Of a stretch of DNA of 64,000 bases, positions 16,124 through 63,742 are shown piece after piece. Location of the stretch: contig CAVSHF010000003.1 in assembly GCA_963727805.1 (NCBI GenBank), positions 949,698 through 1,013,697 of the forward strand. The letters run 5' to 3'. The notes beneath the pieces were generated by a model. The model was not told the DNA's origin, did no database searches, and saw only the letters and a list, made by a program, of their open reading frames with translations. How positions within the stretch are numbered: position 1 is the stretch's first letter; each line of letters begins with the position of its first letter. The position numbers and the translations under genes were made by a program. The stretch comes from an uncultured Nitrospiraceae bacterium. Its GTDB lineage: Bacteria; Nitrospirota; Thermodesulfovibrionia; Thermodesulfovibrionales; Dissulfurispiraceae.

Positions 16124-16684
16124 TTACTTAGTAGCCGATTCCGTCTTAGACTGCAGTTTTGAGATAACTTTTTGCATGCGAAGCTTGGACTTTGCAAGTC
16201 TTCCCTGAACCACGGCCTGCTGGTCTGGTGTAAGTATCGGCATCACCTGGCTGAAGACTTTTGCGCGTGAAATGGCCATCTTCTCCTGTGCTGCTGAAAC
16301 ATCTCCGAATGCTTTCTGCACGGCGGATTGATCAAATGTTGAGCTAGTCGTGGCCATCATCAGGTTCTGTCTCGCTTGGAGAACTGCAATTCTGCCCTCG
16401 ATAAACTCCTTGTGATGACCTTTCATAATGCCTTTGACCTGCTCTTTTTGGGCCGATGTAAGATTGAGCCCCTTGAACATCTTCCACTCGTGATGTCCGC
16501 AACGCCCACCATGTTTATGGTGTTTGCCATACTTTCCATCCATGCCATGTTTACCCTGTTCTACATGCCTCTGCCCACCATCGCGGTCACCCTCCGCATA
16601 CACATTGGAAACCATGCTGCCTCCCAGCAGCATGGTTAGCGACACTGCTGCAGCCAATGCAGAAAAACGACTTAACCCCTTCAT
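16124..16684 (-). CDS. Periplasmic CpxP/Spy/ZraP-family protein (LTxxQ motifs) with a His-rich N-terminal region
   Basis: 186 aa with a signal peptide. Has a His/Gly-rich stretch (GKHGMDGKYGKHHKHGGRCGHH) and LTSAQ and LTPDQQ motifs. Confidence 0.7.
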   Translation of the reverse strand: MKGLSRFSALAAAVSLTMLLGGSMVSNVYAEGDRDGGQRHVEQGKHGMDGKYGKHHKHGGRCGHHEWKMFKGLNLTSAQKEQVKGIMKGHHKEFIEGRIAVLQARQNLMMATTSSTFDQSAVQKAFGDVSAAQEKMAISRAKVFSQVMPILTPDQQAVVQGRLAKSKLRMQKVISKLQSKTESATK

Positions 16685-29290: not shown

Positions 29291-29512
29291 TTACTTTGCT
29301 GGTTTCATCTGCTCGCCACAACAGATTATATCGCAGAAATCAACACAGCCGCAAACTTCATCTACGGTCACGGCAAGGCCGCATACACCACATTCATAAT
29401 GGTTACCACTCTTGAGCTCCTTCTGTTGCTTTGGTGCTGTCTTTTTTGCAGTTGTCTTCGTCTTCGCTGCCTTTACCGCCTTTGAAGTTGATACTTTTTT
29501 CTTTGTCGCCAT
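29291..29512 (-). CDS. Lysine-rich (histone-H1-like tail) protein with a desulforedoxin-like Cys domain
   Basis: 73 aa with AAGGAGG upstream of the ATG. The N-terminal ~33 aa are K/A/T-rich. The C-terminal YECGVCG...ICCGEQM matches the desulforedoxin (Dfx N-terminal) CxxC...CC pattern, with 8 Cys in total. Confidence 0.6.
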   Translation of the reverse strand: MATKKKVSTSKAVKAAKTKTTAKKTAPKQQKELKSGNHYECGVCGLAVTVDEVCGCVDFCDIICCGEQMKPAK

Positions 29513-30353: not shown

Positions 30354-30779
30354 CTACTCTCCACTCCCATCTTTCAAGATTTGTTGAAGGTGCTTGGTCC
30401 TTTCACGGGTTAATTCAGCTTTCCGAAATAAGAAAGACATTGGATACATGCTACCCCAGCAGATTCTTACGTTGTCTTCAGGGCATGCAAATCTTGCTTC
30501 AAGATCAGCATCACGAAATGCCAGCCAAGCTTTCTGGGCAAGCTGTAGTTTGCTAATAAATAACGGGTCATCAGCCTCTTTCTTGATGAGAGACTGATAC
30601 GTTTGATTGAGCGCTTTGTCTGCCTTGGCCAAGTCATCACTAGCGCAGGCGTTTAGTTCTAATTGGCCCCCGCTATCGTTACATTTGATCTCATCGCCAG
30701 CCCATAATGCGATTGGCACAAGCGCGATCAAGGCAAAGAGAACTGCTCGAATAATAATTCGAATCCCCCATTCTAACAA
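30354..30779 (-). CDS. DUF1311 / LprI-like periplasmic protein
   Basis: 141 aa with a signal sequence. Contains ELNACASDDLAKADKALNQTYQSL and QKAWLAFRDA, characteristic of DUF1311. Confidence 0.7.
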   Translation of the reverse strand: MLEWGIRIIIRAVLFALIALVPIALWAGDEIKCNDSGGQLELNACASDDLAKADKALNQTYQSLIKKEADDPLFISKLQLAQKAWLAFRDADLEARFACPEDNVRICWGSMYPMSFLFRKAELTRERTKHLQQILKDGSGE

Positions 30780-31069
30780 TTACGATACCAACTTGGTCTT
30801 TTCTGCCAAAAGTATATCACACTTCAACACATAATAGAATATTGCTGTAACATATATTTCTTTAATATCATCCCATTAAAATTTGACAACTTGTGATAAC
30901 ACGAGATGCATTATTTTTGTTCCCTTGATGATCCGACTTTAATTATTCTATTATTGGAATGTTTTGTCGCTCAAAGAAAATATGCCGGGCAGATTATACT
31001 CACCGAAGTCATTTCAAGGAAGTCTACAGCAGTGGATTGACGGCCTGAGAATCGCCACCTAATAGACGC

Positions 31070-31315
31070 CTATGCCTTTTTCTGTCGGTCCTCACCATGC
31101 GCCTTAGATCTGTCCGTTCGTATCAATCTGCGTACAAAAAAGACTACGCCCAGCGCAATAGCAATCCAGGATATTACCATGACTATTGTAATCCATGTCG
31201 GTAGGCTCGCACCCTGCTCGTCGATGTGGCCCGGACGATCTCCATGGGCATAGGCCGATGATGCAGCGCACAGAACCGCCACCGCTACGACGTTTACCAA
31301 TTCATACAATCTCAT
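31070..31315 (-). CDS. Small exported protein with a C-terminal TM anchor
   Basis: 81 aa. A signal peptide ending AYAHG is followed by a short HGDRPGHIDEQG segment, one TM helix and a basic tail. Confidence 0.4.
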   Translation of the reverse strand: MRLYELVNVVAVAVLCAASSAYAHGDRPGHIDEQGASLPTWITIVMVISWIAIALGVVFFVRRLIRTDRSKAHGEDRQKKA

Positions 31316-31452
31316 GCGGTTGTTCCATTTTTATTTTCGATCAACGTTTTTATCTGCTTACACATGCCGTACATACAATGGAAAAAGCCGCGCATACCAT
31401 TGCGGCATCCCCAAAAAGGATTTCAGAGCTTACAACATAGCCAACACTCTTA

Positions 31453-31854
31453 TTACTTACAATAGCTGCAACTGTCCTCGCAATATTTGCACCTGTATCC
31501 CGATTTGACACAAACATTGAAACATTTGACGTCCTTATAGCGTTGACCCTGCCCCGGCTGCACCTTTTGACTGCCGCTATCACTTGTGCCACAGTTACAA
31601 CTTGACTGACAGCATTTTTGAGTGTCATCTTGAACTCTGCAGCCCTTACAGCACTCCCTTTCAGAGGATGCTGACATAGCACCGGGAGGAAGAGTCACTA
31701 AAGCAATTAAAAAAATTATCAGTAGAACTAAGGGCCCAATTGGCAGGGTATCTTGCATGGTCGTGATTTTACGGTGGATCTTCTGTCCTTCTTTACAGTT
31801 TTCAGAAAAGTCAGATTCATCAGCTGACGAGGTGGTGAAGAGATAATTGTCCAT
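31453..31854 (-). CDS. Membrane-anchored cysteine-rich protein (13 Cys in the last ~69 residues)
   Basis: 133 aa with GGAGGA 6 nt upstream of the ATG at 31854. It has a central TM helix, then ERECCKGC...KCCQSSCNCG...CFNVC...RCKYCEDSCSYCK. Confidence 0.5.
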   Translation of the reverse strand: MDNYLFTTSSADESDFSENCKEGQKIHRKITTMQDTLPIGPLVLLIIFLIALVTLPPGAMSASSERECCKGCRVQDDTQKCCQSSCNCGTSDSGSQKVQPGQGQRYKDVKCFNVCVKSGYRCKYCEDSCSYCK

Positions 31855-31935
31855 GATGTCCTCCAGTAGTCGGATAAGACAATACCCGATATGAAGTATT
31901 AACAGAACCTTCTATAATACTACTGCATAAGCGCA

Positions 31936-33186
31936 TTAATTCGCTATTGCAGGCCCGCTTAAGGTGCGAAGAAAGGCCTCAAGCTGGTCTAATTCCTTAT
32001 CGCTCAATTCGCCGTGGCCAAGCTCATGACTATCCGATCCGCGGTAAAACTTGAGTACCTCTTTTAGTGTTGAGAATTGACCGGCGTGCATATAGGGAGC
32101 TCTTTGAGCAACATTTCTCAATGTAGGCGTCTTAAAGGCGCCTGAATATTTTGTTGTATTCGTATCCAGGTATCTCAGTTCCGCACAATCACCGGGGCCG
32201 GCATCGCTGTATTTGCCCAGACAGTTAAACTCATCCGCGAGTACCTTCCTGATGCCGTCAGCCCTTCCATTGTCGCGAGGCATTTTGGTAGGCGTCGGTA
32301 CGCCAGTATTATGAAAGTCGCTATTGGTAAAGAGAGGGCCAGTATGGCAATTTGTGCATTTGGCCTTGCCTATAAAGAGCCTGAGGCCGCCCGCTTCGTC
32401 AGGTGTAAACATCTTTGAAAGAGCCGTCGTATCGCTGTCGATAAGAGCCTTGGCATACCCATCAAATCGTGACGGTCCTGGAACAATAGTCCGGACATAA
32501 GCGGCAATTGCCTTGCCCATGTTGGCATAAATGCGATCAACCTCATCACGCTGGACCGGCGTCATCGATGCCCATGTCTTGAGTGAAACGATATCTTCCG
32601 TGGCAGGGCTCGCGACAGCATTTTTTATGTCGGGTATCTTACCGAAAATCGCCTCATATTCTGTCCGGTAATGCCTGGCGATCAGATAGGCGCATGCTGT
32701 CCTTGTAAATCCGTGCTCGACGTTGCTCTCAAGCGGACCCAGTGCCTGCGACCAGAGGCTGTCTTTTCTCCCGTCCCAGAAAAACCATGTATTATAGGCA
32801 ACTCCCAACAGAGGCATCGATCTTCTTGTTGTGGATCCTATCCCATGCGCCAACGGAAGGTCATCGGTAAAGCTCATGTCGGGCCTATGGCAGGTGGCGC
32901 ATGATACTTTCAGGTTTCCGCTAAAACGCGAATCAAAGAAGAATCTTTTGCCGAGCGCTATGGCTGCAGGATTATCGGCAAAGGAATTAGAAGGATCTTT
33001 CGGTAGGGCTGGCAGAGATCCTATCCATAAAGAACGTATGACAGAGATCTCCTTTTGATCCCATGAATGAATGCCGTTTTCTGAGGCGCATGCCATCGGT
33101 GCGAGATGTAACGGTATCGCTAATACTACTATGAATAAAAGCGCTGACAGGTGATAATGTCTTTGTGCATTCTTAATGATTTTCAT
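31936..33186 (-). CDS. Di-haem cytochrome c peroxidase family protein (CCP/MauG-like)
   Basis: Two haem c motifs (CATCH and CTNCH) plus PTLRNVA and PYMHAG. The likely start is the ATG at 33186, 13 nt after the upstream stop; the ORF track extends to a TTG at 33210. Confidence 0.85.
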   Translation of the reverse strand: MKIIKNAQRHYHLSALLFIVVLAIPLHLAPMACASENGIHSWDQKEISVIRSLWIGSLPALPKDPSNSFADNPAAIALGKRFFFDSRFSGNLKVSCATCHRPDMSFTDDLPLAHGIGSTTRRSMPLLGVAYNTWFFWDGRKDSLWSQALGPLESNVEHGFTRTACAYLIARHYRTEYEAIFGKIPDIKNAVASPATEDIVSLKTWASMTPVQRDEVDRIYANMGKAIAAYVRTIVPGPSRFDGYAKALIDSDTTALSKMFTPDEAGGLRLFIGKAKCTNCHTGPLFTNSDFHNTGVPTPTKMPRDNGRADGIRKVLADEFNCLGKYSDAGPGDCAELRYLDTNTTKYSGAFKTPTLRNVAQRAPYMHAGQFSTLKEVLKFYRGSDSHELGHGELSDKELDQLEAFLRTLSGPAIAN

Positions 33187-33199
33187 AGGGACATTCTCG

Positions 33200-34036
33200 T
33201 TATGGCACAATAAGGTTAAAGGTAATAATGTCTTCCATGCCCTCTGCCTTTATCTTAAATGTCATCACCCACCATCCAGGCATACTGAATTTCAGCCCTT
33301 GTACGACATAATCTCCGGCAACTGCACCCTCAGCTACCTCTGGCATAGTTGGAAGGCCGTGCCCATGTTCAGGCATTTCACCACTAAGGACGACTTCCGC
33401 GTTCTTTACGGCGCGACCATCTGCCATCACGACTCTCAATTTCCAGCTGATTATCCTGCCGACCGGGATCGGCATGACATTGCTTGCATATGACGCTCTG
33501 AACAGTTTTTTTACTGACTCGCGGGCTGCAGATGTGTCGACATCTGCAGGGGCTGAAGAATGCATCATTTTATGCTCATCCTGCGACATTGATGCCGATC
33601 TGCTAACGTCCGGGAAATCGAAGGTGACATTGTCCTCTGTATTGTTCTTCTGAATCTTCAGTCGAAGCTCCCAGCGCCCTTCCATTATTAGGATTATATT
33701 TTCGACGCTATATGTACCCCCGCCCCTCTCTTTGACCACTGGCTTCTCAAAAACACCATGACCCATCTCCGGCATCCAGGGGACGACCTTTATTTCCGCA
33801 CCGGCCACATCCTTGTCGCTTTTGTCGTGGACGATTATGTCAAGAGTATTAACTCCCACTTTAAGGTCTTTATCTTTGATCACCATCTCGACAGAGTATA
33901 CGCCATTGTCCGTCATCTTGAAGAGGCTCTGCTCATAGTGTTTCGTGTGTTGATCGGCTTCTGAATGACCTGTATGAGCGGCAAACACAATTAACGGGAA
34001 AAGCACAACAGCTATGGCTAATAAAACAGTTCTCAT
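33200..34036 (-). CDS. Exported protein with two YtkA/FixH-like Ig-fold domains
   Basis: 278 aa with a signal peptide. The N-terminal domain is clearly homologous to the C-terminus of the CopD fusion (VVPWMPEMGHGVF.KPVVKE.GGGTYSVEN). A second domain contains MPEHGHGLP. Confidence 0.6.
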   Translation of the reverse strand: MRTVLLAIAVVLFPLIVFAAHTGHSEADQHTKHYEQSLFKMTDNGVYSVEMVIKDKDLKVGVNTLDIIVHDKSDKDVAGAEIKVVPWMPEMGHGVFEKPVVKERGGGTYSVENIILIMEGRWELRLKIQKNNTEDNVTFDFPDVSRSASMSQDEHKMMHSSAPADVDTSAARESVKKLFRASYASNVMPIPVGRIISWKLRVVMADGRAVKNAEVVLSGEMPEHGHGLPTMPEVAEGAVAGDYVVQGLKFSMPGWWVMTFKIKAEGMEDIITFNLIVP

Positions 34037-34115
34037 GGCAGGGACCTCATTCCAATAGATATAGGATGTTCTAAAAAAATATTCCTTGTCAGCAGCTGTA
34101 CTATGCTAATAAACA

Positions 34116-34147
34116 GTCAGGGCAGGAACATTAAGTCCTGCCCTGAC
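34116..34147 (-). terminator. Rho-independent terminator candidate after the Met-rich gene
   Basis: 12-bp perfect stem GTCAGGGCAGGA / TCCTGCCCTGAC with an 8-nt loop, 9 nt past the stop at 34156. On the minus strand it is followed by TGTTTATT. Confidence 0.6.
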
Positions 34148-34155
34148 GAATCAGA

Positions 34156-34905
34156 CTATTTAGAGCCGGCTGAAGGCATCTTGGAAAGTAAATCGATGAC
34201 TTTCATGGCAGCTTCGCCATGCTGATGAGACATCGCCATCATTGGGTTGTCCATCGTCATGCCCTTTTCATGCATGTCCATCATCTCTTTGCCGCCCATC
34301 ATGTCGGATACCATGGGTTTGGCATCCTTCATCATCTCTTTTCCGTGCTCGACTGTCATCTTGTCTACAGCACCTGCCATGCCCATCTCCCCAAGCATTA
34401 CCATATTAGCTCCTTCGGCAGCCATTTGCAAGGCATGATTGACCATCATATGCATATGGTGCATTGACATCATGCCAGGAGCGGACATGTCCTCCATAGA
34501 CATCTTTTCGAGTATGTCAGCGACTTTGAGCATAGATTCGCCAAGTTGATGTGTGTAGTCCATCATCGGGTCCTTGCCATGTTTCTTCATCATAGCTGTC
34601 ATCTCCGGGCCATTTAGGGCACGAACGATCAATTCCTTGCCTTCTTTCATCATGTGGTGTCCGTGATGGAGCATCTTTTCATCGACTCCCGGTGCCATTT
34701 TCATCTGCGCAAGCATCGCCATATTCGAACCCTCGGCTATCATCGATATGCCGTGATTCATCAGCATATGGAAGTGATGCATGTGCATAGAGGCATCATG
34801 GCCCTTGTGCTTCATCTCTTCAGCATTTGCAGAACCAAACATAGCAAAAGACAAGATAACTGCTAATACAATTATCCTGTTAAGTCTTTTCATCATACCT
34901 TTCAT
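34156..34905 (-). CDS. Periplasmic Met/His-rich protein with an internal ~105-aa duplication (probable Cu(I)-binding)
   Basis: 249 aa with a signal peptide. I counted about 53 Met (about one residue in five). Two repeats follow the pattern HM..NH...M.AEG.NM.ML..M.MA...D....HG..MMK. Confidence 0.65.
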   Translation of the reverse strand: MKGMMKRLNRIIVLAVILSFAMFGSANAEEMKHKGHDASMHMHHFHMLMNHGISMIAEGSNMAMLAQMKMAPGVDEKMLHHGHHMMKEGKELIVRALNGPEMTAMMKKHGKDPMMDYTHQLGESMLKVADILEKMSMEDMSAPGMMSMHHMHMMVNHALQMAAEGANMVMLGEMGMAGAVDKMTVEHGKEMMKDAKPMVSDMMGGKEMMDMHEKGMTMDNPMMAMSHQHGEAAMKVIDLLSKMPSAGSK

Positions 34906-35097
34906 AAATAATCCTCCTTTGTTGTCGGTCTAAACCGACTTTCGGTTATCTTAAAGATAACGTGTAGCCATATAAAATATAGCTATGATCGATCCGTCAA
35001 ACAACTTCACCGTAAGTTTGTGCAAATCGCCTGTCACCATTACGTCCGCAGTGGTGGAAGAAATCACTGGATTATGTTCATCCAGTGACATGTCTGC

Positions 35098-36432
35098 CTA
35101 TCCACTACTGACCGGGAAGGCAAAGGTGACATTGTCCTCTGCATTGTCCTTTTTAATCTTCAGCCTCATCTCCCAGCGTCCTTCCATTATAAGCACAACA
35201 TTTTCTACACTATATGTACCGCCTCCCTTCTCTTTGACTACGGGTTTATCAAAGACCCCATGCCCCATCTCCGGCATCCAGGGGACAACATTCATTTCCG
35301 CGCCAGTTACCTCTTTCCCATTTTTGTCCTGGAGCACGACGTCAAAAGTATTAACTCCCACCTGAAGAGCTTGATCTTTGATCACAATCTTCACAGAATA
35401 CAGACCATTGGCCGTCATCTTTAACAGACTCTGCTCATTGACCTGTTCCTTACGTTGACTCATGCCACGATCGGTACTCGTTTCAGGATTTGAAAGCGTT
35501 CTTTGTTCGCGTTCCAGCAGCAGCATATGGACAGCATGACGTGCGGGGACTTCTTGTGTGAAAAGAGAGACACAGAAAAGTATCGCCAGTATCAGGAAAG
35601 CTTCGACTCTGCTCCGCTTGAGAAACTTTGTAACGTATGCAGCTTCGTCCTTTCCCTTCTGAGGAGGGGCGATGTATCTTGAAGTGAGATATGCAAAGAT
35701 AAGCAACTTGATCGAAAGTAACCGTCCGTAGGTATTCGTCAGAAGTGCCCCGAAGGATCCGACATCTACCCAGGCGTTGTAAAGCCCCGTAAAGACGAGC
35801 ACAGCAAAAACAGGACCGAAAAGGACGTAGAACCTGTCAGCTATGCCAGATACGATATGCTGCTGTTCGACGTTGTCCGCTATTTTAGATGCAGAAAACA
35901 TAATCGATATCGTCAGTAGTGTTCCTCCCCAGGAGATAGATGCCAGAAGATGGAACCAGTCTGATAATTCCTGCAGGCTAAAGTCTCCGTTGTCTGCACC
36001 GTGGCTTGTCGCACTGCGTGAAAAGGCAATGGCAGCGCAGGCTAAAAGCAATACAATAGCTATAATACGTGAATTCAGATGCCGATTCCCCAGCCACCAA
36101 ACACACCAGGCTAAGACGATACCAACCGCCCTCACGAGCCACATGCTTCCATAATGCGAACTGAACAGAACAGTTGGCAATACAGGGACTATTTCCGTGA
36201 TGCCCAGACCTGCCATCACCATAGCTCGCTGCACAAGGAGGCCTAAGCTGCTGATGCTCAGTCCGACAAGGCAAAATAAGAGCAGCCTGCGGCAACCGTC
36301 AGAACATTGGTTGGTTGGTGAGTCGACGGATACCGGGCGCATAGTCCAGAAAAGGCAAAGGATAGTGCCAACGAACAAGGATAGCGCCGAAAGATCGATG
36401 AACGGCATCAAGCTATGCAGAAATATATCCAT
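35098..36432 (-). CDS. copD: CopD-family copper-resistance membrane protein fused to a C-terminal YtkA/FixH-like domain
   Basis: About 8 TM helices are followed by a soluble domain homologous to 33200-34036. I place the start at the ATG at 36432 (10 nt after the copC stop, GAGG upstream) rather than the track start at 36513, which overlaps copC by 71 nt. Confidence 0.75.
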   Translation of the reverse strand: MDIFLHSLMPFIDLSALSLFVGTILCLFWTMRPVSVDSPTNQCSDGCRRLLLFCLVGLSISSLGLLVQRAMVMAGLGITEIVPVLPTVLFSSHYGSMWLVRAVGIVLAWCVWWLGNRHLNSRIIAIVLLLACAAIAFSRSATSHGADNGDFSLQELSDWFHLLASISWGGTLLTISIMFSASKIADNVEQQHIVSGIADRFYVLFGPVFAVLVFTGLYNAWVDVGSFGALLTNTYGRLLSIKLLIFAYLTSRYIAPPQKGKDEAAYVTKFLKRSRVEAFLILAILFCVSLFTQEVPARHAVHMLLLEREQRTLSNPETSTDRGMSQRKEQVNEQSLLKMTANGLYSVKIVIKDQALQVGVNTFDVVLQDKNGKEVTGAEMNVVPWMPEMGHGVFDKPVVKEKGGGTYSVENVVLIMEGRWEMRLKIKKDNAEDNVTFAFPVSSG

Positions 36433-36442
36433 GTCATTGACC

Positions 36443-36817
36443 TCATTTGATCGTAAATCTATAATCCCCGGTAGTGCGGTGTCCGTCTCTTGCCACGACG
36501 TTCCAAATGACACGATAGGTTCCAGCCGGCAGCGGAGGCAAGCCGACTTCGAGCAGGACCGAATTGGAGGGGTTCACCCGGCTGTTGCCCTGGTCCACTT
36601 GTTTGCCACTCATGTCCTGGACTGTCATCTTGCTGAAGGCCGGCTCAATATCCCCATCGAACCATATATATGCGCCGACAGGCGGAGTCGAAATAGTCTC
36701 CCCGACCCTCGGAATTGAATGATCGGGGAAGGCATGCCCATGGGACATACTAGGTAATACAAGCAGTAACGCAAGATAAGAAAGCGCTACTGCCGTCCTG
36801 ACATTCATGATATGCAT
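36443..36817 (-). CDS. copC: CopC periplasmic copper-binding protein
   Basis: 124 aa. The signal peptide is cleaved before HAFPDHSIP (N-terminal His ligand). The CopC pattern PAGTYRVIWNVVARDGHRTTG is present. Confidence 0.85.
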   Translation of the reverse strand: MHIMNVRTAVALSYLALLLVLPSMSHGHAFPDHSIPRVGETISTPPVGAYIWFDGDIEPAFSKMTVQDMSGKQVDQGNSRVNPSNSVLLEVGLPPLPAGTYRVIWNVVARDGHRTTGDYRFTIK

Positions 36818-36823
36818 AAGAGT

Positions 36824-37951
36824 TTAGTGAAAAATCGGCCCGCCTATGCTCTTCGGGAACAGGTCATCAACAAATAAATGTATCAGACCAAGAACGCCGA
36901 CAGTCTTCCCCGACCTTGAGTTGACAGGCAGTTCTGCAGCAATTCCGAACTCCATGAACTTCCCCGCCCACACCACACCCGGGTTGATAGTTCCAGTCGT
37001 CAGTCCCTTACTGTCCTGGCTCACGTTGGTCTGCATGGGAAATTCCACGACAAGGATCATGCGTTTGAAGGGATCCGGCAGGCCGATGTCTTTTACATGC
37101 TGTTGCAGGTACATGAGACTGTACTGAATTGTGAACCCCCAGTTAAAAGTCTTAGCATTGTAACTTATAGTCGTGTCTCCAGTATCCGGATCCGTACTGA
37201 CATTCTTGCTTCGTGTGGGGAACCCCATACCAATAGCTCCTGTAACTGCAAACGGTCTGATAAAACTAACGGAGTCTGGCAGATCGCCAAGACCCTTTCC
37301 GAAAAAGAGCCCAGGTGTTACGGTCGAAAATGAGTCCGAAATCTGATGTGCCCCTGTGCCTCCAAGGTCGACGTCAGTACCGATTGACATAATCAGTTCA
37401 TGGGGAGCATTTGTCAAAAACTGCCATTTCGCACCCACACCGAGGTTATCCCAGCCATGCGCCGAGGTGCCATCATCGAACTTCTGGTGTATGTATGCTT
37501 CATGAAATTCAAACCCGAAGTTCGGGATCAGGCGTTTGGAAACGTCGATGTTTATGTCAGTTTCCTTCGATGCCGGGTCTCCAGATTGTCTATTGTGGTG
37601 TATAAGGATCGAAAACTCATCTGAAATAAAGGGGTCGTCCACTGCGAATGTCGTGGGGAAAAACCTGTTGCCCGCGATACCGTGTGCCAAAGCCATGTCC
37701 GGCACAAGAAGTACTAATGACAAGGCAACCCCAAGAGTGCTCAACAGAGATGCTGTCAGTATCGAACCTCCCGACAACGACCAACTTATCGTCCACTTTT
37801 TTTTCGCGTTTCTTTTAATAGATTTTATCACTTCTAAAACCTCCATATTTTTATGTTCAACATCCCTAAAGTAAGGCCGTATGGTGCCTGCTTCCTTCCA
37901 CTGTTTGTCAAAAGCAAGAGAAATATCCAAGTGGTGACCTCTGCCTTGCAC
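36824..37951 (-). CDS. Putative outer-membrane beta-barrel protein (transporter / MetA-pathway-like)
   Basis: It has alternating amphipathic beta-strand character and a signal-like segment ending ALAHG. It lies 6 nt upstream of copC. The start is uncertain (GTG at 37951 or ATG at 37846). Family assignment rests on general resemblance only. Confidence 0.45.
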   Translation of the reverse strand: MQGRGHHLDISLAFDKQWKEAGTIRPYFRDVEHKNMEVLEVIKSIKRNAKKKWTISWSLSGGSILTASLLSTLGVALSLVLLVPDMALAHGIAGNRFFPTTFAVDDPFISDEFSILIHHNRQSGDPASKETDINIDVSKRLIPNFGFEFHEAYIHQKFDDGTSAHGWDNLGVGAKWQFLTNAPHELIMSIGTDVDLGGTGAHQISDSFSTVTPGLFFGKGLGDLPDSVSFIRPFAVTGAIGMGFPTRSKNVSTDPDTGDTTISYNAKTFNWGFTIQYSLMYLQQHVKDIGLPDPFKRMILVVEFPMQTNVSQDSKGLTTGTINPGVVWAGKFMEFGIAAELPVNSRSGKTVGVLGLIHLFVDDLFPKSIGGPIFH

Positions 37952-37989
37952 ATACCAAATCTGGATATTTCAGACAGACAGTTTCGAAT

Positions 37990-38322
37990 CTAGCTTGCAT
38001 ACTCTGGGGGAGGATAATCTTGAAAGACTATCAATAAAGCGCTAGGTGTGAAACTCGATGCAGTATAACCCCCGACATAATGCATTGAAGCAGATAGGTA
38101 TGCACTTTCGTGGACAACGGGCGTGTCAATGCTCTTCTGAATCCCCTCTGTCGAAGCGTGGCAGACCTCTAGTGTAGCAATGCATGGCACGCTGGAGTTT
38201 GTAGACATGCATATATTTACTTTTGGCATTATTGATAAGACCAGACAGATTACACTTATTACCGGAATAAGTTTCGCGAAGTTTGCTATATCCAAAAAAC
38301 CTTGCGATGATTTTATTTGCAT
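37990..38322 (-). CDS. Small single-TM protein, paralogue A of an unknown family
   Basis: 110 aa, homologous to 40261-40563. Shared blocks are LEVCH, GIQ..IDT and a C-terminal TPS..LIVFQ(D/E)YPPPE. Confidence 0.45.
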   Translation of the reverse strand: MQIKSSQGFLDIANFAKLIPVISVICLVLSIMPKVNICMSTNSSVPCIATLEVCHASTEGIQKSIDTPVVHESAYLSASMHYVGGYTASSFTPSALLIVFQDYPPPEYAS

Positions 38323-38593
38323 GTTACCAGAATATCATGTCCTCAAAAAAAATCAAGGATGTCGGTGCATTTGTCACCGGGTTTGATGCTAAAACATGAT
38401 AGATTCTTTCCTTATTCCTCTCAGCATGCACTTTGCCGCAAGGTGTTATAGGCCATTTTTTTGTGGGGGGTCTTTCGACCCCTCCAAATCGGCTTCTATC
38501 AATGCGTGGTGGAATTCTAAAAAAGCTCGATGAAAGAACAGATTGCCTTCTTGCGCCTGTCTCAGCACCGCCGAAGCCGTTGACAGCCCTGAG

Positions 38594-40093
38594 CTAAAAC
38601 ATTACTTGAAAGCTGGCATTGAGAAGCCATTTAGTTTTCAACTGAATGCCGTTCAGGTCTTGATAGAGTGGAATACCTCCTTCAACTCCGATGCTGAAGG
38701 GACCCTTTTGATAACTCACACCGATCAGTCCATCGAGTCGCTGGCCGCCATAGTTGTTGGGATCGGCATCTGGCATTGGCGCCCCTGTCATGGGATTCAG
38801 TATCTCCTGGATCTGGGAATCCTGGCCCTTGATTCGCCCGGTATCGTTATAGGCAAGACGGAACGAGGGGGTAACGGGGTCTAAGGCACGCTGAATCCAA
38901 CCGGTCACCTTGAAGTTGTCCCCGTAGCTCCAGCCCTCACCATTTTTTGCAGTATGCCAGGTGTACTGTGCTTGAGCGCCCCAGTTCCATTTAGCGTCGT
39001 CGCTGAGACCGTTGTAGGTAAGCGTGGGCTTGAGATCGTATGTGCCTGAACCAAGTTGCATATCATAAGGGGCGCGCAATTCCATGCCCATTACGTCTAC
39101 TGTCTGCTTGATGCTGCCGGTCGGGAGGCTGAGACCGAGGCTGCCGACAAGATAGTTGTTGATCTTATACATACCTCTCAGCTCGGTGTCACCAAAACCG
39201 CTAGTGGACATAGGAGCGCTGGAGAAGGTGCCCATCATCGGGCCCATGTCCATTATCATTTTCATCTTGTTCGTCACATAACTCGTCATTGCCATCACGG
39301 TCACACGGTCGGTGATCCCGTACATCGCCATCACCATTTGCATATCCATCGTCATGCTGGTTGGGATCATCATATAGTTATAAGGCCGGTTCCTCATAAA
39401 ACCGACACTGCTATTCCCAGCGTTATTTGTCCCAGCGCGCAACCCCATCATGTCCATATGCATGAATGAGTAGTTAACCATCCACATGCCCGCTGGGTGG
39501 GTATGGTATATGTGATCGCTGAAGGCTGGATTGAACAGCATTTGGGCGCCCGGGCCCATATCCATATGGCGCATATCATGAGCCATGTGCCCATGATGGT
39601 CGTGGTTCATCATCCCCGCCTTCGCAACATCGTCTTCAGCGGCCTTCAGCGCCTCATCAAAGGTGCTCACTTTGCCGCCGTATTCCTTCACGAAGGCCTG
39701 CGCTTCTTTCTCCTCTGCAAAAGCCCATTCCGCTAAATAAGTCATGACCCCCGGTTTACTGCCGCCAATGACCCAGGTTGCGGTCTTTACATCTATCAGC
39801 TTCGTTGTTGCATAATCGGCAACCATAATCGACTTGACCTGCTTGTTTTTGTTTTCGTTCATCTCCTCGGCTGCACAGTGGAGGCTGCAGAACCCCACCG
39901 TGGTCCCGTCGGCATAGACAATAAGCATCCGGCTCCTGACATAAACGTTCCGGTCCATCCCGCATACGTTGCAGGTCTTGGGATTCTCTATGGTGGCCGC
40001 CTCGTTGCCGGCAATTGATGTGCGCACGCAGAATAACTGAACAAGAATAAACATGACCGCAAAAGATGTTTTAAACTTTTTTAGTGGTTTCAT
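38594..40093 (-). CDS. Fusion protein: NosL/TRASH-like Cys module plus Met/His-rich linker plus outer-membrane beta-barrel
   Basis: 499 aa with a signal peptide. Contains CNVCGM-x24-CSLHC, a NosL-like alpha/beta part (WVIGGSKPGVM...AFAEEKEAQAFVKEYGG), the stretch MMNHDHHGHMAHDMRHMDM, a Met-dense segment, and beta-strand repeats ending in the terminal aromatic ...FQVMF. Confidence 0.6.
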   Translation of the reverse strand: MKPLKKFKTSFAVMFILVQLFCVRTSIAGNEAATIENPKTCNVCGMDRNVYVRSRMLIVYADGTTVGFCSLHCAAEEMNENKNKQVKSIMVADYATTKLIDVKTATWVIGGSKPGVMTYLAEWAFAEEKEAQAFVKEYGGKVSTFDEALKAAEDDVAKAGMMNHDHHGHMAHDMRHMDMGPGAQMLFNPAFSDHIYHTHPAGMWMVNYSFMHMDMMGLRAGTNNAGNSSVGFMRNRPYNYMMIPTSMTMDMQMVMAMYGITDRVTVMAMTSYVTNKMKMIMDMGPMMGTFSSAPMSTSGFGDTELRGMYKINNYLVGSLGLSLPTGSIKQTVDVMGMELRAPYDMQLGSGTYDLKPTLTYNGLSDDAKWNWGAQAQYTWHTAKNGEGWSYGDNFKVTGWIQRALDPVTPSFRLAYNDTGRIKGQDSQIQEILNPMTGAPMPDADPNNYGGQRLDGLIGVSYQKGPFSIGVEGGIPLYQDLNGIQLKTKWLLNASFQVMF

Positions 40094-40260
40094 GCTTCCC
40101 CCTTTTGTATCAGGCTAAAAGCCTTTATGATTCGTTGCTCTTCTTATTAAATTCGTTAGATTTCAACAAACTATCACTTGCAGTAGAACTACCGATTGAC
40201 ACATCTCAACCCTGCGCCGCGCATATGTCACCTGGGCATTTCAGTCGAACTGTTTCGAAG

Positions 40261-40563
40261 TTAACTTGTTGATTCTGGGGGAGGGTATTCTTGAAAGACT
40301 ATCAGTACAAGGCTAGGCGTTGAACTCAATGTAGTATGAGTTCCAGTAGAGTTCCATGGACCAAACAGCTCAGAATCGCCAATAACTGAGGAGGTGTCAA
40401 TAATTCTCTGAATCCCTGATGTCGGATGGCAGACTTCAAGCTTACCGATGTATCGTTCCGCTGGACTTATATGAATGTTGACGAGTCCAGTCGGCATTAG
40501 GGAAACTATGAGCACGATCAGGATTATTCCCGAAAGCAGTTTCACAGCATTTGCAATGTTCAA
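40261..40563 (-). CDS. Small single-TM protein, paralogue B of an unknown family
   Basis: 100 aa with a TTG start and no clear RBS. It shares conserved blocks with 37990-38322 (see that entry). Confidence 0.45.
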   Translation of the reverse strand: MNIANAVKLLSGIILIVLIVSLMPTGLVNIHISPAERYIGKLEVCHPTSGIQRIIDTSSVIGDSELFGPWNSTGTHTTLSSTPSLVLIVFQEYPPPESTS

Positions 40564-40781
40564 AGGAACTCAGATATTTTCATTTGGATGACGCTAGCAT
40601 ATCACATCCACGGAGAATATCAAAAATATGCCGCAACCGGGATTGACATGAAGGCAAGGGTTAGTCTAACGAATAAGTATTTTTTAAAGGAGAAATGTTA
40701 GTACATGAATATTCTGTTCATCTTCGGATTTCCCGCATATATAAATCTTTTTTATGGGCCGTGATTAAATTCGTTAGTACC

Positions 40782-41276
40782 TCAGTCCGACTTTTGGAAT
40801 TCCAAGATGGGAATATGATATTTGCCATCTTGGAATTTCCCGGGAATTCTGATCGGGTAGCAGCCCCCAATTCCACTCTTTACTTCTGACACGCTATATG
40901 TCGTACCGCATTCCTTACAAGTAAAATGACCGCTACTAAAGGTGAAGCCAACCTTGGATTTACAGCTCACACATTTATCAAGAAAAGAAAGGACTTCGTT
41001 GTCGATTTTTATGACAAAGAAATTTATGTTCTCGTTCCCGGAATCATAAGTAAAGAATTGGGGAACATCGGGCTTCAGGCTTAGAACATCGATGTTCACC
41101 TCTTCGCCTGATACCGGCGCTTTCGAATAAATAGCATGCTTAGAGCAGGCAGCAAGAAGCATAAGGCATAGCAGTAAAAAATAGAGTCCCTTCTTAGCAA
41201 ATGTCCTATTGGTTAATACTTGCTTTTTAAACGTGTGCATCTTAGAGAATCTTTTGAGCCTCATGTTAGTTTGCAT
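40782..41276 (-). CDS. Lipoprotein with a CxxC...CxxC...GGC module (DUF2318-like)
   Basis: 164 aa with a lipobox LLAAC. Contains DKCVSCKSKVGF...FTCKECGTTY...GIGGCYPIRIP. The start is uncertain among several Met codons. Confidence 0.5.
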   Translation of the reverse strand: MQTNMRLKRFSKMHTFKKQVLTNRTFAKKGLYFLLLCLMLLAACSKHAIYSKAPVSGEEVNIDVLSLKPDVPQFFTYDSGNENINFFVIKIDNEVLSFLDKCVSCKSKVGFTFSSGHFTCKECGTTYSVSEVKSGIGGCYPIRIPGKFQDGKYHIPILEFQKSD

Positions 41277-41561: not shown

Positions 41562-42401
41562 CATACTGCTTTGGCTGCCAACCTGGCAGCGTTTAACTCT
41601 TTCAACTGCTTCACTTGCGGCATATCTTGCCCGGACTAGCAGTCGTTTTCTTGAGCCTGTCCCAGAGGGCTGCCTCTTGCGTGAGAACCTTAGTGCTCAA
41701 TTCTTTCTTCATCCCGTCTTCACCTCCTCTCCGAATAATCGGATTTAGCATGCCAAATAACAGCCCAGTCAATCCTTGGGCAGTGAAATTATTAGAGCCG
41801 TACAACTCGCTTCGGGCTGATAATCACTGCTTTAGGCACTTTCATCACCATTGCCGGATTAAAGTTATCCCTGTGCTTGTCATACAGCTCTTTATTTCTG
41901 CAATGCATTCTGGGGGACCATAGCTCTTTTTACATTTGGGTTCTTCCACGGATGCTTCAGGCTTCCCTCTCGCTGCTAAGGGCTTGCTCACCACATCCGA
42001 CACTCAGTCCCTTTCTCGTCATTGTTCCTATGGCTAACCCAAGAATGACATTGCAAGTCCTTCTTGATTGAAGCATAGCCCTAACACAAGAGAAATTAAA
42101 TCAGACAAAAGCTAATTTTGTAGTCAGTCTTGTCCTACAAAGGAAATCGGGCAACAAATACAAAACTGTCTGCCTTCTTCAATGCAATCATCTTTTTTGA
42201 CCTTGGAAGTCCTCTTTGGTCTGTCTCACTTCAGCATGATGATGAATATTGAAGCTTTTGATCGGAAATGCACGTCTAACATCTTCAAGTCCTTCGAAAG
42301 GAGCATATATTGCATATTTCATTCATTGTCATTGGTCTCCCTCATTTTGTTGCATCATTCGGGGAGAAGACGGCGCCCTGTCCCCGCATGATGAACGACA
42401 A

Positions 42402-43223
42402 TTAAGATATCTTCGCTGCCTTGGCGATCGGTGGGGTCGGGATATTCGAGCCGTGACGTTCGATGCAGTTGCTCTGAGCAGTGATACCGTAGTTTGCAGA
42501 AGATACAGTACCATTCGTTTCGTACTTGCCGTCCTTCCAGGCATTCAAAAGTTTGACAACATGATAGACCGTGCTTGCGGTGACGCGGGCACAACGGTCC
42601 TTTCGTTCGGGGCTCTTAAGATCTTTGTCTGCTGCCTTCATCCATTTGCAGACCGATATGTGGCAAAAAGGAGAATCGCTGACTGTTTTAGGAAGGACAG
42701 TTTTGATCCTGGGATTGCTGGGCGTGAAGATCGGCATCTGCGCATTGGCATACCAATCAAGCATTTCGCCTCCCATCAGCGCGCCATCTTCAGACCCGGC
42801 TATCCGAGGCTTATTATCATATTGGCCACTATATTGGCTCCCATAGGCGCGCCGCAGATGGTCCCCCATCCCATGATTCCACCTTCGAGAAGGAGCAAGA
42901 GTCTATATGAAAAGACTTGTATGGCTCTCCAACTTTCTCTCTCAGCTGAGTGAAGACGCTGCTGATCACGGCCGCGCCGCAAAGAGTCGACACCATTCAT
43001 TATGGGCAAGTGCAGCGGTTTGCGCAGGGTCAAGCTTCACATACGGCCATGGCCATTTTTCTGTCGGCCCTTCCCTGGCTTCCGCGTTAGAAAGTAAGTT
43101 CCCGAGCTGATCGGCAGTCGAGCCGATAGCTAATAATCCTGCACCTGCAATGAACTTTCTTCTTGAAACCGTGTCGTTTCCGGATACCTTTTTTTTAATC
43201 CTCCTTTGTATGAAATTATTCAA
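42402..43223 (-). pseudogene. Tat-exported C_GCAxxG_C_C / split-Soret-cytochrome-like redox protein, disrupted by three frameshifts
   Basis: The N-terminal piece (42966-43223) has SRRKFIAGAGLLA and KWPWPYVKLDP. A frame-0 piece reads CGAAVISSVFTQLREKVGEPYKSF. A frame-1 piece reads GGIMGWGTICGAPMGA. The C-terminal piece (42402-42869) reads LDWYANAQMP...FCHISVCKW...RCARVTAS. The reading frame moves the same way three times and returns to the original frame. Confidence 0.65.
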
Positions 43224-56922: not shown

Positions 56923-57171
56923 ACCAAACCAGCTTATTATTTTATCTTAGATTTCAGGCGATATACTTAAAATATGACTCTCCGCTTGCAGAAAGAGATC
57001 CATTCCTATTAGTGCTGGTCTAGTCTAAGGAAAACCAAATAGTTTTGTTCCTTCGCATCTTTTGTCGGTACCTTATCCGCACAAGACATTTCATACTTTG
57101 ACTTGAACAAGATGATTACTATAATGAAGATGATGGCAAAACAACAATTAACAAAAAAGGAGAATGAGAAA

Positions 57172-57801
57172 ATGAAACCGTGTTTGTCGATAAGTGCAAT
57201 TTTATTGTTGGTACTTACATTCTGTATTAGCGGTGCAAGTGCACAACCTATGGACCAGGGTTCAGGGATGCAAGCTGATCCGCCAGGACAGATGAATATG
57301 AAGTGCGGCGGTATGATGCACGAAGGTATGATGCACGAAGGTATGATGCATGAAGGGATGATGCATGGAGACATGATGGAACGGCAACATCATATGAAAA
57401 TGATGCTGATGCGACTCGGTCTCGATGAAAAACAGAAGGCAGAAGTGAATAGAATAATGACTGCACACATGAAAGATGTCATTAAAAAGAAGGCTGATTT
57501 GGACATCGCAAAATTTGATCTACAAAGCATTCTCAGCAAAGATCCCATGGACATGAAAGCTGCCGAATCAAAGCTAAAGGAGATTGAGGCAATTAAGACA
57601 GCCCTATTCCTTGCTCATCTAACTGCTCATCAGGAGATTAAATCAGTACTGACGCCCGAACAACAAAGAAAAATGAAAGAGATGATGGAAATGCATATGA
57701 TGGGCGGCGGAATGATGGGCAAAGGTGGCTGTGGCTGTGACATGAAGACAGGTGTGACGAAAGGAAAAGAGCATTACGAGCACGATAAAATGATGAAATA
57801 G
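57172..57801 (+). CDS. Periplasmic CpxP/Spy-family protein with Met-rich repeats at the N-terminus and a Met-rich C-terminal end
   Basis: AAGGAG lies 9 nt upstream of the ATG at 57172 (the track start at 57103 is less likely). It has a signal peptide, GGMMHEGMMHEGMMHEGMMHGDMM, an LTPEQQ motif and a C-terminal MMEMHMMGGGMMGKGGCGC. Confidence 0.7.
   Translation: MKPCLSISAILLLVLTFCISGASAQPMDQGSGMQADPPGQMNMKCGGMMHEGMMHEGMMHEGMMHGDMMERQHHMKMMLMRLGLDEKQKAEVNRIMTAHMKDVIKKKADLDIAKFDLQSILSKDPMDMKAAESKLKEIEAIKTALFLAHLTAHQEIKSVLTPEQQRKMKEMMEMHMMGGGMMGKGGCGCDMKTGVTKGKEHYEHDKMMK
57310..57369 (+). repeat. 15-bp tandem repeat x4 encoding (GMMHE)n
   Basis: The units are ggtatgatgcacgaa x2, ggtatgatgcatgaa and gggatgatgcatgga. 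Confidence 0.9.
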
Positions 57802-62524: not shown

Positions 62525-63742
62525 ATGAAAACAGCTTATTTTGAATGTCCAGCAGGTATCAGCGGCGATATGTGTCTCGGGGCCCTCGTCGATGCCGGAG
62601 CGAGTCTCTCCGCAATAAAACGTTCATTGAAAAAAATCCCGATAGCCGGTTATACACTTTCTTCCAGAAAGGTTATACGCGCTGGTATTTCAGCCACGAA
62701 GGTCGATATCAAAATAAAAAAGCCAGTGGTAAATGCGTATCTGGATACGCCAATTCATAACGAACAAGCACGCAGATGGAAGGATATTCAAAACATTATC
62801 AGAAAGTCTATCCTGCCCGAAAAAATAAAAAATAAAGGACTCATTATCTTTAAAGAACTCTTCGAAGCCGAGGGCAAGGTGCATGGGAAACCCTTCGATT
62901 CGATACACCTTCATGAACTCGGGGCCACGGACTGTATAGTAGACATTTTCGGAACCTTGATCAGTTTGGACTTTCTTGGTATTGAAAAGGTAATCGCCTC
63001 GCCAGTCAATCTCGGTCAGGGTACCATAAATACGGCACACGGCTTACTTCCTGTGCCTGCACCCGCAACCATTGAATTACTCAGGGGATACCCTGTTTAC
63101 TCTTCTGAAATACCTTTTGAGCTCACTACTCCTACCGGAGCCGTCATTTTAAAGACTCTTGCATCGTCATGTGTGTCGTTTCCCCGAATCACCGTCGAAA
63201 CGATTGGGTATGGCGCAGGCAACAGGGATATCACGGCCATGCCGAATGTTCTCAGACTGATGATCGGTGAAGAATACACGGTAAACAACAAGCCAATATC
63301 GCCAGCATCTGAGAATTCGGTCATAATTCTAGAAACTAATATAGACGATATGAATCCTCAATATTTTGAGTGTGTGATGAACAGGCTTTTTGTCGCTGGC
63401 GCCCTCGATGTGTTTCTCGAAAACATAATCATGAAAAAAAGCCGTCCTGGCATCAAACTAACAGCAATCGTCAGGGAACATGATGTCGATAAAATGGCAG
63501 ATATTTTATTTAACGAGACCACAACAATCGGAATACGCATTTATAGGGCTGACAGAAAGATTCTTGAAAGGGAAGTGAAACGGATAAAGACACGATACGG
63601 CTTCGTAAGGGTTAAAGTCTCCCGTTTAAAGGGGAAAATTGTAACAACCACCCCTGAATACGAAGACATCAAGGCTATTTCAGAGAAAACAAATACTCCG
63701 ATAAAGAATATCGCTGAGGAAGTCACGAGCTGCAAATCCTGA
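62525..63742 (+). CDS. larC: Nickel-pincer cofactor biosynthesis protein LarC (DUF111 family)
   Basis: 405 aa. N-terminal FECPAGISGDMCLGALVDAG, plus HLHELGATDCIVD and TPTGA motifs. Confidence 0.9.
   Translation: MKTAYFECPAGISGDMCLGALVDAGASLSAIKRSLKKIPIAGYTLSSRKVIRAGISATKVDIKIKKPVVNAYLDTPIHNEQARRWKDIQNIIRKSILPEKIKNKGLIIFKELFEAEGKVHGKPFDSIHLHELGATDCIVDIFGTLISLDFLGIEKVIASPVNLGQGTINTAHGLLPVPAPATIELLRGYPVYSSEIPFELTTPTGAVILKTLASSCVSFPRITVETIGYGAGNRDITAMPNVLRLMIGEEYTVNNKPISPASENSVIILETNIDDMNPQYFECVMNRLFVAGALDVFLENIIMKKSRPGIKLTAIVREHDVDKMADILFNETTTIGIRIYRADRKILEREVKRIKTRYGFVRVKVSRLKGKIVTTTPEYEDIKAISEKTNTPIKNIAEEVTSCKS

Follow-up and report, generated by a model that had tools for sequence, protein, structure and literature searches.

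In this study, we examined a cluster of 13 co-directional genes that occupies about 11 kb of the minus strand (30354-41276) of a 64-kb stretch of DNA from an uncultured Nitrospiraceae bacterium, referred to below as the window. Our preferred reading, to which we assign a probability of about one half, is that this cluster encodes a copper acquisition and delivery pathway spanning the cell envelope. Protein families, folds, ligand motifs, gene linkage and transcription in situ are directly supported. An initial annotation of the same DNA had described 13 co-directional minus-strand genes, nearly all of them for exported or membrane proteins, and had seen in them a copper theme in the cell envelope. 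All 13 open reading frames (ORFs) lie where it had placed them, and each translation begins with a signal peptide, a lipobox or a membrane anchor (judged by eye). Every one of its domain calls that could be tested was borne out by Pfam or by AlphaFold2 (AF2) models compared with Foldseek, and CopC, CopD-YtkA and the NosL-type Cu(I) ligand pattern agree with the copper theme. Genes are labelled g01 to g13 in the order of transcription, and L-numbers (L001-L031, L103-L105) denote related loci in other genomes or metagenomes.

g01, 40782-41276, minus strand: lipoprotein, FtrD-like/DUF2318, CxxC...CxxC (PF10080, E 5e-13)
g02, 40261-40563, minus strand: small paralogue B, ~100 aa, N-terminal anchor, LEVCH motif, C-terminal PPPE
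g03, 38594-40093, minus strand: NosL-like domain, His/Met-rich linker and 12-strand COG4313-type outer-membrane barrel
g04, 37990-38322, minus strand: small paralogue A, upstream of the second barrel (g05)
g05, 36824-37951, minus strand: predicted outer-membrane barrel of an unnamed family (AF2 and Foldseek)
g06, 36443-36817, minus strand: CopC with a predicted Cu(II)-only C0-1-like site (Pfam CopC, E 4e-17)
g07, 35098-36513, minus strand: inner-membrane CopD with C-terminal YtkA (Pfam CopD, E 2e-11; YtkA, E 5e-14)
g08, 34156-34905, minus strand: secreted Met/His-rich protein, two ~105-aa repeats
Hairpin with T-run, 34116-34147, minus strand: GC-rich, 12-bp stem, between g08 and g09
g09, 33200-34036, minus strand: secreted double-YtkA protein (Pfam YtkA twice, E 5e-24)
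g10, 31936-33210, minus strand: MauG/MbnH-like di-haem enzyme
g11, 31453-31854, minus strand: anchored Cys-rich protein
g12, 31070-31315, minus strand: small protein with signal peptide, predicted mature N-terminus HGDRPGH and C-terminal membrane helix
g13, 30354-30779, minus strand: LprI/DUF1311 (Pfam LprI, E 1e-19)

The likely true starts of g05, g07 and g10 are at 37846, ~36432 and 33186, respectively. Seven proteins have a Pfam family (g01, g03, g06, g07, g09, g10 and g13), while g02, g04, g05, g08, g11 and g12 matched none in Pfam or NCBIfam; among the latter are four families that neither database names (g02/g04, g05, g08 and g11).

The CopC-CopD core and the outer-membrane barrels

For g06, the Pfam CopC model scored 63.5 bits against a cut-off of 23.3, whereas the NCBIfam equivalog remained below its own (58.7 vs 95 bits). 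The predicted mature N-terminus, HAFPDHSIP (cleavage placed by eye), is followed further along by RDGHRTTG, with the DGH near the C-terminus, and no Met-rich Cu(I) loop can be read from the protein. CopC proteins of the C0-1 class have a His/Asp/His Cu(II) site, with an N-terminal His and a D-x-H motif, and no Met-rich Cu(I) site (PMC12362106); judged from its sequence, g06 is a C0-1-like CopC with a Cu(II)-only site. Its gene lies immediately upstream of g07 as a separate ORF, and g07 unites CopD with a C-terminal YtkA domain in one ORF (NCBIfam CopD 93 bits, below cut-off). By domain set, the two proteins together would be a split equivalent of YcnJ, the copper importer that Bacillus subtilis needs under copper starvation, in which the copper sites of both CopC and CopD are required for growth and haem-copper oxidase function when copper is short, and the YtkA domain overlaps functionally with CtaK (PMC13344008; PMC12362106). 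Only two YtkA domains have been studied, both of them from B. subtilis (PMC12362106). The YtkA domain of g07 recurs as domain 1 of g09, the two forming a 300-nt direct repeat with 76% nucleotide identity (35042-35341 / 33540-33839).

The barrel gene g05 ends 6 nt upstream of copC. Its product had no sequence match in Pfam, NCBIfam or the PDB, and its AF2 model is all-beta (predicted local distance difference test, pLDDT, 64), with Foldseek retrieving the 12-strand barrels FapF (E 2e-8), NanC and 4rl8. The family counts more than 3000 homologues, all annotated as hypothetical, one of which is fused to CopC. A stretch reading HG.AG.RFFPTTF is invariant across the family and stands directly after the predicted signal-peptide cleavage site. 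A barrel family tied to CopCD in this way is not described in the searchable literature.

The other barrel protein, g03, carries a NosL domain (residues 34-147; Pfam 66.9 bits vs cut-off 24, E 3e-18). Its AF2 model, built from 46 sequences (pLDDT 81), consists of an N-terminal domain (25-145), a disordered His/Met-rich linker (146-173) and a confident beta-barrel (190-486). The barrel resembles the 12-strand COG4313 channel 4rl8 (Foldseek E 8e-13, target-normalised TM-score, TMt, 0.73) and also FapF, and the N-terminal domain resembles the copper chaperone NosL (7og7, TMt 0.69, 25% identity; 7znq_L). At the sequence level g03 scored 17.2 for PF13557 against a cut-off of 22, and some homologues have a precomputed PF13557 match. 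The g03 barrel and g05 are not recognisably similar in BLASTP, so that we rejected a single sequence family; only the fold class is common to both. NosL is a characterised Cu(I) chaperone whose site comprises Cys59, Cys62, Met64, Cys88, Asp92 and Met145, with strictly conserved Cu ligands (PMC8457098). Invariant across the 46 sequences of the g03 family are C28-x-x-C31-G-M33, C56-x-x-x-C60 and M104, and the NosL Cu ligands Cys62, Met64 and Met145 (Shewanella denitrificans numbering) are thereby retained, M104 being equated with Met145 by spacing, not by superposition. There is no lipobox in g03; the NosL domain is joined to the barrel instead. Further, invariant Met residues occupy alternate positions on two adjacent barrel strands (234-244; 254, 256 and 264-270).

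Relatives of g03 were found in 19 species-level genomes, almost all of them Nitrospirota/Thermodesulfovibrionales metagenome-assembled genomes (MAGs), and more than 120 full-length homologues with at least 59% identity carry the label "NosL" in Dissulfurispiraceae, Thermodesulfovibrionales and Ca. Sulfobium. One contig binned as "Bacteroidales" (L014, CAWFKG010000016.1) has a frameshift-split NosL-barrel gene 81% identical to that of the window; it is probably misbinned or derived from an error-prone long-read assembly. Neither the window nor the related loci yielded nosZ, nosD, nosF or nosY genes. Literature searches combining NosL and COG4313 returned no relevant paper, and a NosL domain fused to an outer-membrane channel is not described in the searchable literature. 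In one further locus (L020:17880-21406), the genes of a CbiMNQO Ni/Co energy-coupling factor importer directly follow a PF13557 (COG4313-type) barrel gene, which hints that barrels of this superfamily may serve as outer-membrane metal entry ports more generally.

Both barrel genes of the window are directly preceded by a gene for a small protein (g02 before g03, g04 before g05). The two are paralogues (44% identity) from a family of ~95-aa proteins that are anchored N-terminally, carry an L(D/E)VC(H/N) motif and end in a PPxx tail. In 10 of 19 loci the NosL-barrel gene has a member immediately upstream, and a g04 homologue precedes the barrel-CopC-CopD genes in L026 and L103. The g02 family is very narrow, with 17 matching cluster representatives among 1.8 billion proteins, and this small Cys-His protein family is likewise not described in the searchable literature. 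A direct repeat (37941-38066 / 40212-40337, 74%) covers the 3' ends of both small-protein genes and the sequence just downstream.

A YtkA protein paired with a MauG-like di-haem enzyme

The initial annotation had taken the peroxidase-like g10 as a sign of redox-stress handling, which our data do not bear out. The protein matches CCP_MauG (127.8 bits, E 7e-37), and its best NCBIfam match is the MbnH family (TIGR04039, 141.9 bits vs cut-off 362.85), although MbnH and MauG family models score about equally and both remain below cut-off. Its haem motifs, CATCH and CTNCH, are each at least 95% conserved in 70 sequences, as is Tyr389 (at least 95% in 70 relatives), which aligns without gaps to MauG position 294 and stands at the Met site of Geobacter sulfurreducens CcpA. 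Tyr294 is the axial haem ligand of MauG, and peroxidase-type bacterial cytochrome c peroxidases have their Met ligand at this site. Relatives of g10 number at least 530 in metagenomes, and a gene with a YtkA domain lies directly upstream on the same strand in 53 of the 67 loci with room upstream, with 7 more within ~2 kb. Outside Nitrospirota this pair stands alone among unrelated neighbours. On the MauG-type Tyr and the tight partner linkage we rejected a reading of g10 as an ordinary detoxifying peroxidase.

On the partner side, domain 2 of g09 has a pair-specific invariant motif, MPxHGHGLPTxP...M.GWW. A profile of this domain weakly matches a PDB entry named "Copper resistance protein" (9ll2, E 0.015); PDB sequence searches with g05, g08 and g09 themselves gave nothing usable, and none of the 13 proteins has an MbnP-type match in NCBIfam. 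In the MbnH-MbnP system, a di-haem enzyme converts one Trp residue of the partner protein to kynurenine, which then serves as copper ligand (PMC11951088), and by analogy g09 and g10 resemble such a dedicated enzyme-substrate pair more than an oxidant defence. No relevant paper was found in literature searches for MauG with YtkA, and the pair is not described in the searchable literature.

The remaining proteins add further potential metal ligands. Met accounts for 53 of the 249 residues of g08 (21.3%) and His for 8.4%, with no Cys, and its two repeats are 46% identical. Its 137 homologues have no Pfam domain, belong almost all to Nitrospirota and are co-located with other modules in L003, L006, L011, L026, L028-L031 and L103; this family, too, is not described in the searchable literature. 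Cys residues number 14 in the g11 ORF, 13 of them after the membrane anchor, and g11 is kept after the di-haem gene in L023-L025 (61-76% identity). Homologues of g12 lie after g11 in L025 and near the NosL-barrel gene in L004 and L016. For g01, a lipobox (LLAAC) is visible, and a homologue adjoins the NosL-barrel gene in L001, L003, L005, L006, L009, L012 and L019. In Campylobacter jejuni, DUF2318 occurs in FetA with a YHS domain, beside FtsX-type ATP-binding cassette (ABC) and thioredoxin genes that serve redox-dependent metal uptake (PMC10783030); a set comparable to this neighbourhood lies downstream of the NosL-barrel gene in L001. Just beyond g13, a 73-aa ORF (29291-29512, minus strand) has a Lys/Ala-rich N-terminal tail, a CxxCG...CCGxxM pattern and no Pfam match. 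This pattern is reminiscent of desulforedoxin.

Gene linkage, expression and the reading of the locus

Within Thermodesulfovibrionales, the cluster resolves into modules, namely a small protein with the NosL-barrel, barrel-CopC-CopD, the Met-rich protein, and YtkA with the di-haem enzyme, which come together in no fewer than three different arrangements. The barrel-CopC-CopD order is seen again in L002, L004, L006, L007, L017, L020, L026 and L030. Nearly all modules are present in L006 and L030, in a different order. Four close relatives (L026, L103-L105; 86-92% identity) keep the order of the window from the FtrD-like gene to the di-haem enzyme (FtrD-like, small protein, barrel, CopC, CopD-YtkA, Met-rich, YtkA2, di-haem) without g02-g03. 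Looked for as one set in other genomes, as the initial annotation had proposed, the genes thus do recur together as modules, but in reshuffled order and, in the closest relatives, without g02-g03. Many genes are set apart by intergenic gaps of 120-290 nt. The largest separates g13 from the cluster; since this DUF1311 gene also has low transcript depth and appears in no related locus, it is probably a neighbour and not, as first listed, a cluster gene.

Near the relatives' clusters we also noted TonB-dependent receptors (L001, L103). In L103 (1263-5176), and likewise in L104 and L105, such a receptor lies with ExbB, ExbD and TonB genes divergently upstream, where the window has g02-g03. NCBIfam was negative for a copper type (OprC/NosA), and we did not use these receptors as evidence. 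Upstream of g01, a minus-strand gene with a twin-arginine signal and related to split-Soret cytochrome c (42435-43223) has been disrupted by two frameshifts that compensate each other and by in-frame stops, its CxxCH reading CIERH; an intact homologue (L017:8913-9851) scores E 9e-44 in NCBIfam, and in L016 and L017 intact homologues directly precede the NosL-barrel gene.

The most informative linkage concerns thiocyanate dehydrogenase (TcDH). A match to this enzyme (PDB 8q9x, E 3e-171) heads an operon in three Thermodesulfovibrionales MAGs (L005:1962-3452, L008:450-2054, L019:84-419), in which TcDH and two FtsX-type ABC sets are followed by YtkA, small-protein and NosL-barrel genes; an FtrD-like gene is also present at the operon end in L005 and L019. 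Thiocyanate dehydrogenase is a tri-copper enzyme known from aerobic sulfur oxidisers, so that one would not expect it in organisms presumed to be anaerobic. Thioalkalivibrio induces copCD and two ABC sets together with TcDH, and these genes have been proposed to supply its copper (PMC5744179). From gene order, the position of the NosL-barrel module at the end of the TcDH operon points to copper supply rather than detoxification. The initial annotation had proposed Cu(I) sequestration or trafficking in the envelope. Envelope copper stands, but because the NosL-barrel ends the TcDH operon and copCD is co-induced in Thioalkalivibrio, acquisition and delivery appear likelier than sequestration.

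Transcript evidence comes from four wetland metatranscriptomes, in which contigs with 85-95% identity to the window span g12 to g05 (31.0-37.7 kb) at an assembler depth of ~20-220, lower in a few bins. The cluster genes are therefore expressed in ordinary anoxic, unamended wetland soils. Coverage of g01-g04 is scant, which fits the relatives without g02-g03. Of the terminator predicted at 34116-34147, the hairpin itself (12-bp stem) exists; terminator-like sites are, however, no more frequent in the window than in shuffles (14 vs 12.5), and contigs run through it (33867-34622), another joining g11 to g10. Since these contigs of relatives run across it, the hairpin is at most a partial terminator, and a division of the cluster into two operons at this point is weakened.

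The initial annotation had further reported that a P-type ATPase, a multicopper oxidase, CusCBA and a regulator are all missing, and this holds for the ORFs covered here. No P-type ATPase, multicopper oxidase or resistance-nodulation-division pump is encoded among all window ORFs of at least 400 aa, which comprise histidine kinases, a NiFe hydrogenase large subunit, TPR, HEAT and HD proteins, LarC and similar. Regulators of the MerR, CsoR and CopY types are absent from the 30 flanking ORFs scanned, a set that does not include ~10 ORFs of at least 110 aa lying over 12 kb away, nor numerous shorter ORFs (e.g. 41877-42391). Nor did the flanks of 19 + 6 related loci contain an efflux pump, oxidase or metal-sensing regulator, their ORFs having been compared with the window proteins and recurrent or precomputed families checked. 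Rfam revealed no riboswitch and only a sub-threshold, partial 6S RNA match (41939-42011, minus strand, 29.8 vs 46.4 bits, E 0.008) in the 1.1-kb gap upstream of g01.

The relatives' lineages, together with the freshwater sediment, peat, bioreactor and permafrost habitats of the DNA runs containing the region, identify the host as a Thermodesulfovibrionales/Dissulfurispiraceae-like anaerobe of sulfur-cycling habitats. The window also encodes a NiFe(Se) hydrogenase large subunit (7464-9161) and the nickel-insertion protein LarC (62525-63742), which fits an anaerobic, metal-demanding lifestyle.

What we infer from these data is which metal is handled, which way it travels, in what order it is passed on and what reaction g10 performs. 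In the pathway that we propose, copper would cross the outer membrane via the two 12-strand barrels, g03 and g05, and the NosL-type domain tethered to g03 would take up Cu(I) on the periplasmic side. The barrels would be passive and without energy for export, and the tethered chaperone would act as a sink favouring inward flux. The Met/His-rich g08 and the 4-Cys lipoprotein g01 might then buffer or relay Cu(I), while CopC (g06) would bind Cu(II) at its N-terminal histidine brace and pass it to CopD-YtkA (g07), which, as in YcnJ, would import it or hand it off at the inner membrane. For g09 and g10 there are two options: g10 could modify g09 and so make or tune a copper site, as MbnH does on MbnP, or it could oxidise chaperone-bound Cu(I) to Cu(II) that CopC can accept. 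The copper would end in periplasmic or membrane cuproenzymes.

Several points weigh against this acquisition pathway. CopC and CopD originally received their names as resistance determinants, and Met/His-rich periplasmic proteins like g08 are also found in resistance systems (PcoE/SilE). No cuproenzyme is encoded in the 64-kb window. The confidence of the g05 model is modest, polar residues alternate with the invariant Met of the g03 barrel so that these Met may face outward, and the transcript contigs come from relatives and may include DNA.

A rival reading is periplasmic detoxification by sequestration, in which Cu(I) would be captured by the proteins rich in Met or Cys and by the YtkA proteins, the barrels would leak it out, and the di-haem enzyme would clear peroxide or oxidise Cu(I) to Cu(II) in place of a multicopper oxidase. 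Both g08 (21% Met, 8% His) and g11 (13 exposed Cys) are plausible metal sponges, two envelope proteins of the PF13801 "Metal_resist" family (LTXXQ, Spy/ZraP-like) are encoded elsewhere in the window (16124-16684, minus strand; 57103-57801, plus strand), 14-16 kb off, and, Cu(I) being especially toxic under anoxia and O2-dependent multicopper oxidases unusable, a substitute driven by peroxide or another oxidant is conceivable. We nevertheless regard sequestration as unlikely, roughly half as probable as acquisition. The ORFs scanned in the window and related loci include neither an energised exporter nor a copper-sensing regulator, and the CopC/CopD-YtkA set has experimental backing for import, not export, as in YcnJ. 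The module is linked to the operon of a copper-requiring enzyme and expressed in unamended wetland soils, and g10, with its MauG-type Tyr and dedicated partner, is unlike detoxifying bacterial cytochrome c peroxidases.

The cluster might also bring together, by chance alone, three or four envelope modules that do not depend on one another (NosL-barrel; barrel-CopCD; YtkA-di-haem; miscellaneous small proteins), each with its own client and regulation. This would account for the YtkA-di-haem pair standing alone among unrelated neighbours in most of 80 metagenome loci, for the close relatives without g02-g03 (L026/L103), for the gaps of 120-290 nt between many genes and for the sharp drop in transcript depth between g05 and g04. 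It is hard to square with the return of the same modules together in at least three gene orders in Thermodesulfovibrionales, with copper-type ligand motifs in all modules, and with the 76% identity between the g07 and g09 YtkA domains, which indicates exchange within the cluster, and we consider it improbable. Least credible, at odds that we would call long, is that the substrate is not copper but some other thiophilic metal (Ag, Hg, Ni, Co, Zn) or a metal sulfide species. Met, His and Cys can equally serve as ligands of Ag(I) and Hg(II), NosL shares the MerB fold and holds Zn as well (PMC8457098), and the L020 barrel adjoins a Ni/Co importer; the histidine-brace residues of CopC form a Cu(II) site, however, the Cu(I) ligands of NosL are conserved, and the module is linked to a copper enzyme operon.

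If copper acquisition is the correct reading, the locus joins a YcnJ-like importer, dedicated outer-membrane barrels, a channel-tethered NosL and a MauG-like enzyme with a YtkA partner, and in relatives the NosL-barrel module is linked to thiocyanate dehydrogenase maturation. How bacteria import copper is understood far less well than how they export it, and to our knowledge almost nothing is known of import in strict anaerobes, where sulfide makes copper scarce. The cluster thus offers candidates for the missing outer-membrane step of copper uptake, for the function of YtkA domains and for a new client class of MauG-type protein-modifying haem enzymes. While the CopCD-YtkA and NosL components are of known kinds, we tentatively entertain, with distinctly less confidence than for the pathway as a whole, that two undescribed copper devices lie side by side. 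The g03-type protein would represent a novel type of channel for Cu(I) uptake across the outer membrane, with a built-in NosL, a methionine track and a small Cys-His helper, and YtkA with the Tyr-ligated di-haem enzyme would be a second MbnP/MbnH-like system installing a protein-derived cofactor or copper site. If true, both devices, along with the g05 family and its invariant N-terminal His, would define anaerobe copper scavenging in sulfidic, copper-starved habitats.

Comparison with known systems

The initial annotation had suggested a route different from the characterised copper systems. This is upheld in so far as the cluster, judged by gene content, is not a Cop/Pco/Cus/Cue resistance locus: it shares CopC and CopD homologues and a Met-rich periplasmic protein with these systems, but the ORFs scanned include no CopA/PcoA oxidase, CopB/PcoB, P-type ATPase, CusCBA or CueR/CopRS. 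It is not upheld for all components, as CopC/CopD-YtkA would be a split YcnJ and NosL is characterised.

In its di-haem part, the cluster recalls MbnH-MbnP. Here, too, a secreted CCP/MauG-type di-haem enzyme with a MauG-type Tyr is encoded right after a small, secreted, beta-rich partner with His/Met/Trp motifs in a copper gene context. The partner, however, is a YtkA-domain protein instead of MbnP, with GWW in place of WxW, the MbnH score of g10 is far below cut-off, and the host is an anaerobe. Like NosL of the NosDFYL system, g03 belongs to the NosL family of Pfam, is modelled with the NosL fold (7og7, 7znq_L) and has a CxxCxM...M ligand pattern. It differs in that it is not a lipoprotein but is joined through its His/Met-rich linker to a 12-strand outer-membrane barrel, in having Cys throughout its family at the position of NosL Asp92, and in the absence of nosZDFY genes nearby; the client of its module in relatives appears to be thiocyanate dehydrogenase. 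The modelled barrel fold of g03 and g05 matches that of COG4313/PF13557 channels (Pput2725) and FapF, known members of which are tied to uptake of hydrophobic compounds or amyloid secretion, whereas g03 has invariant alternating Met and a metal chaperone domain.

The closest counterpart of g06 and g07 is YcnJ, alongside Escherichia coli YobA-YebZ and Pseudomonas CopCD. Shared features are the set of CopC, CopD and YtkA domains, the C0-1-type His/Asp/His site and the position of YtkA C-terminal to CopD. In contrast to YcnJ, CopC is here a separate periplasmic protein, the host is a diderm anaerobe in which copC follows its own outer-membrane barrel gene at a distance of 6 nt, and the YcnI/DUF1775 partner and YcnK regulator are not part of the cluster. 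Finally, the TcDH clusters of Thioalkalivibrio combine copCD, two FtsX-type ABC sets and a periplasmic tri-copper enzyme, an arrangement comparable to L005, L008 and L019. While the window itself has neither a TcDH gene nor ABC genes, the Nitrospirota clusters add NosL-barrel, YtkA, small-protein and DUF2318 genes to this arrangement.

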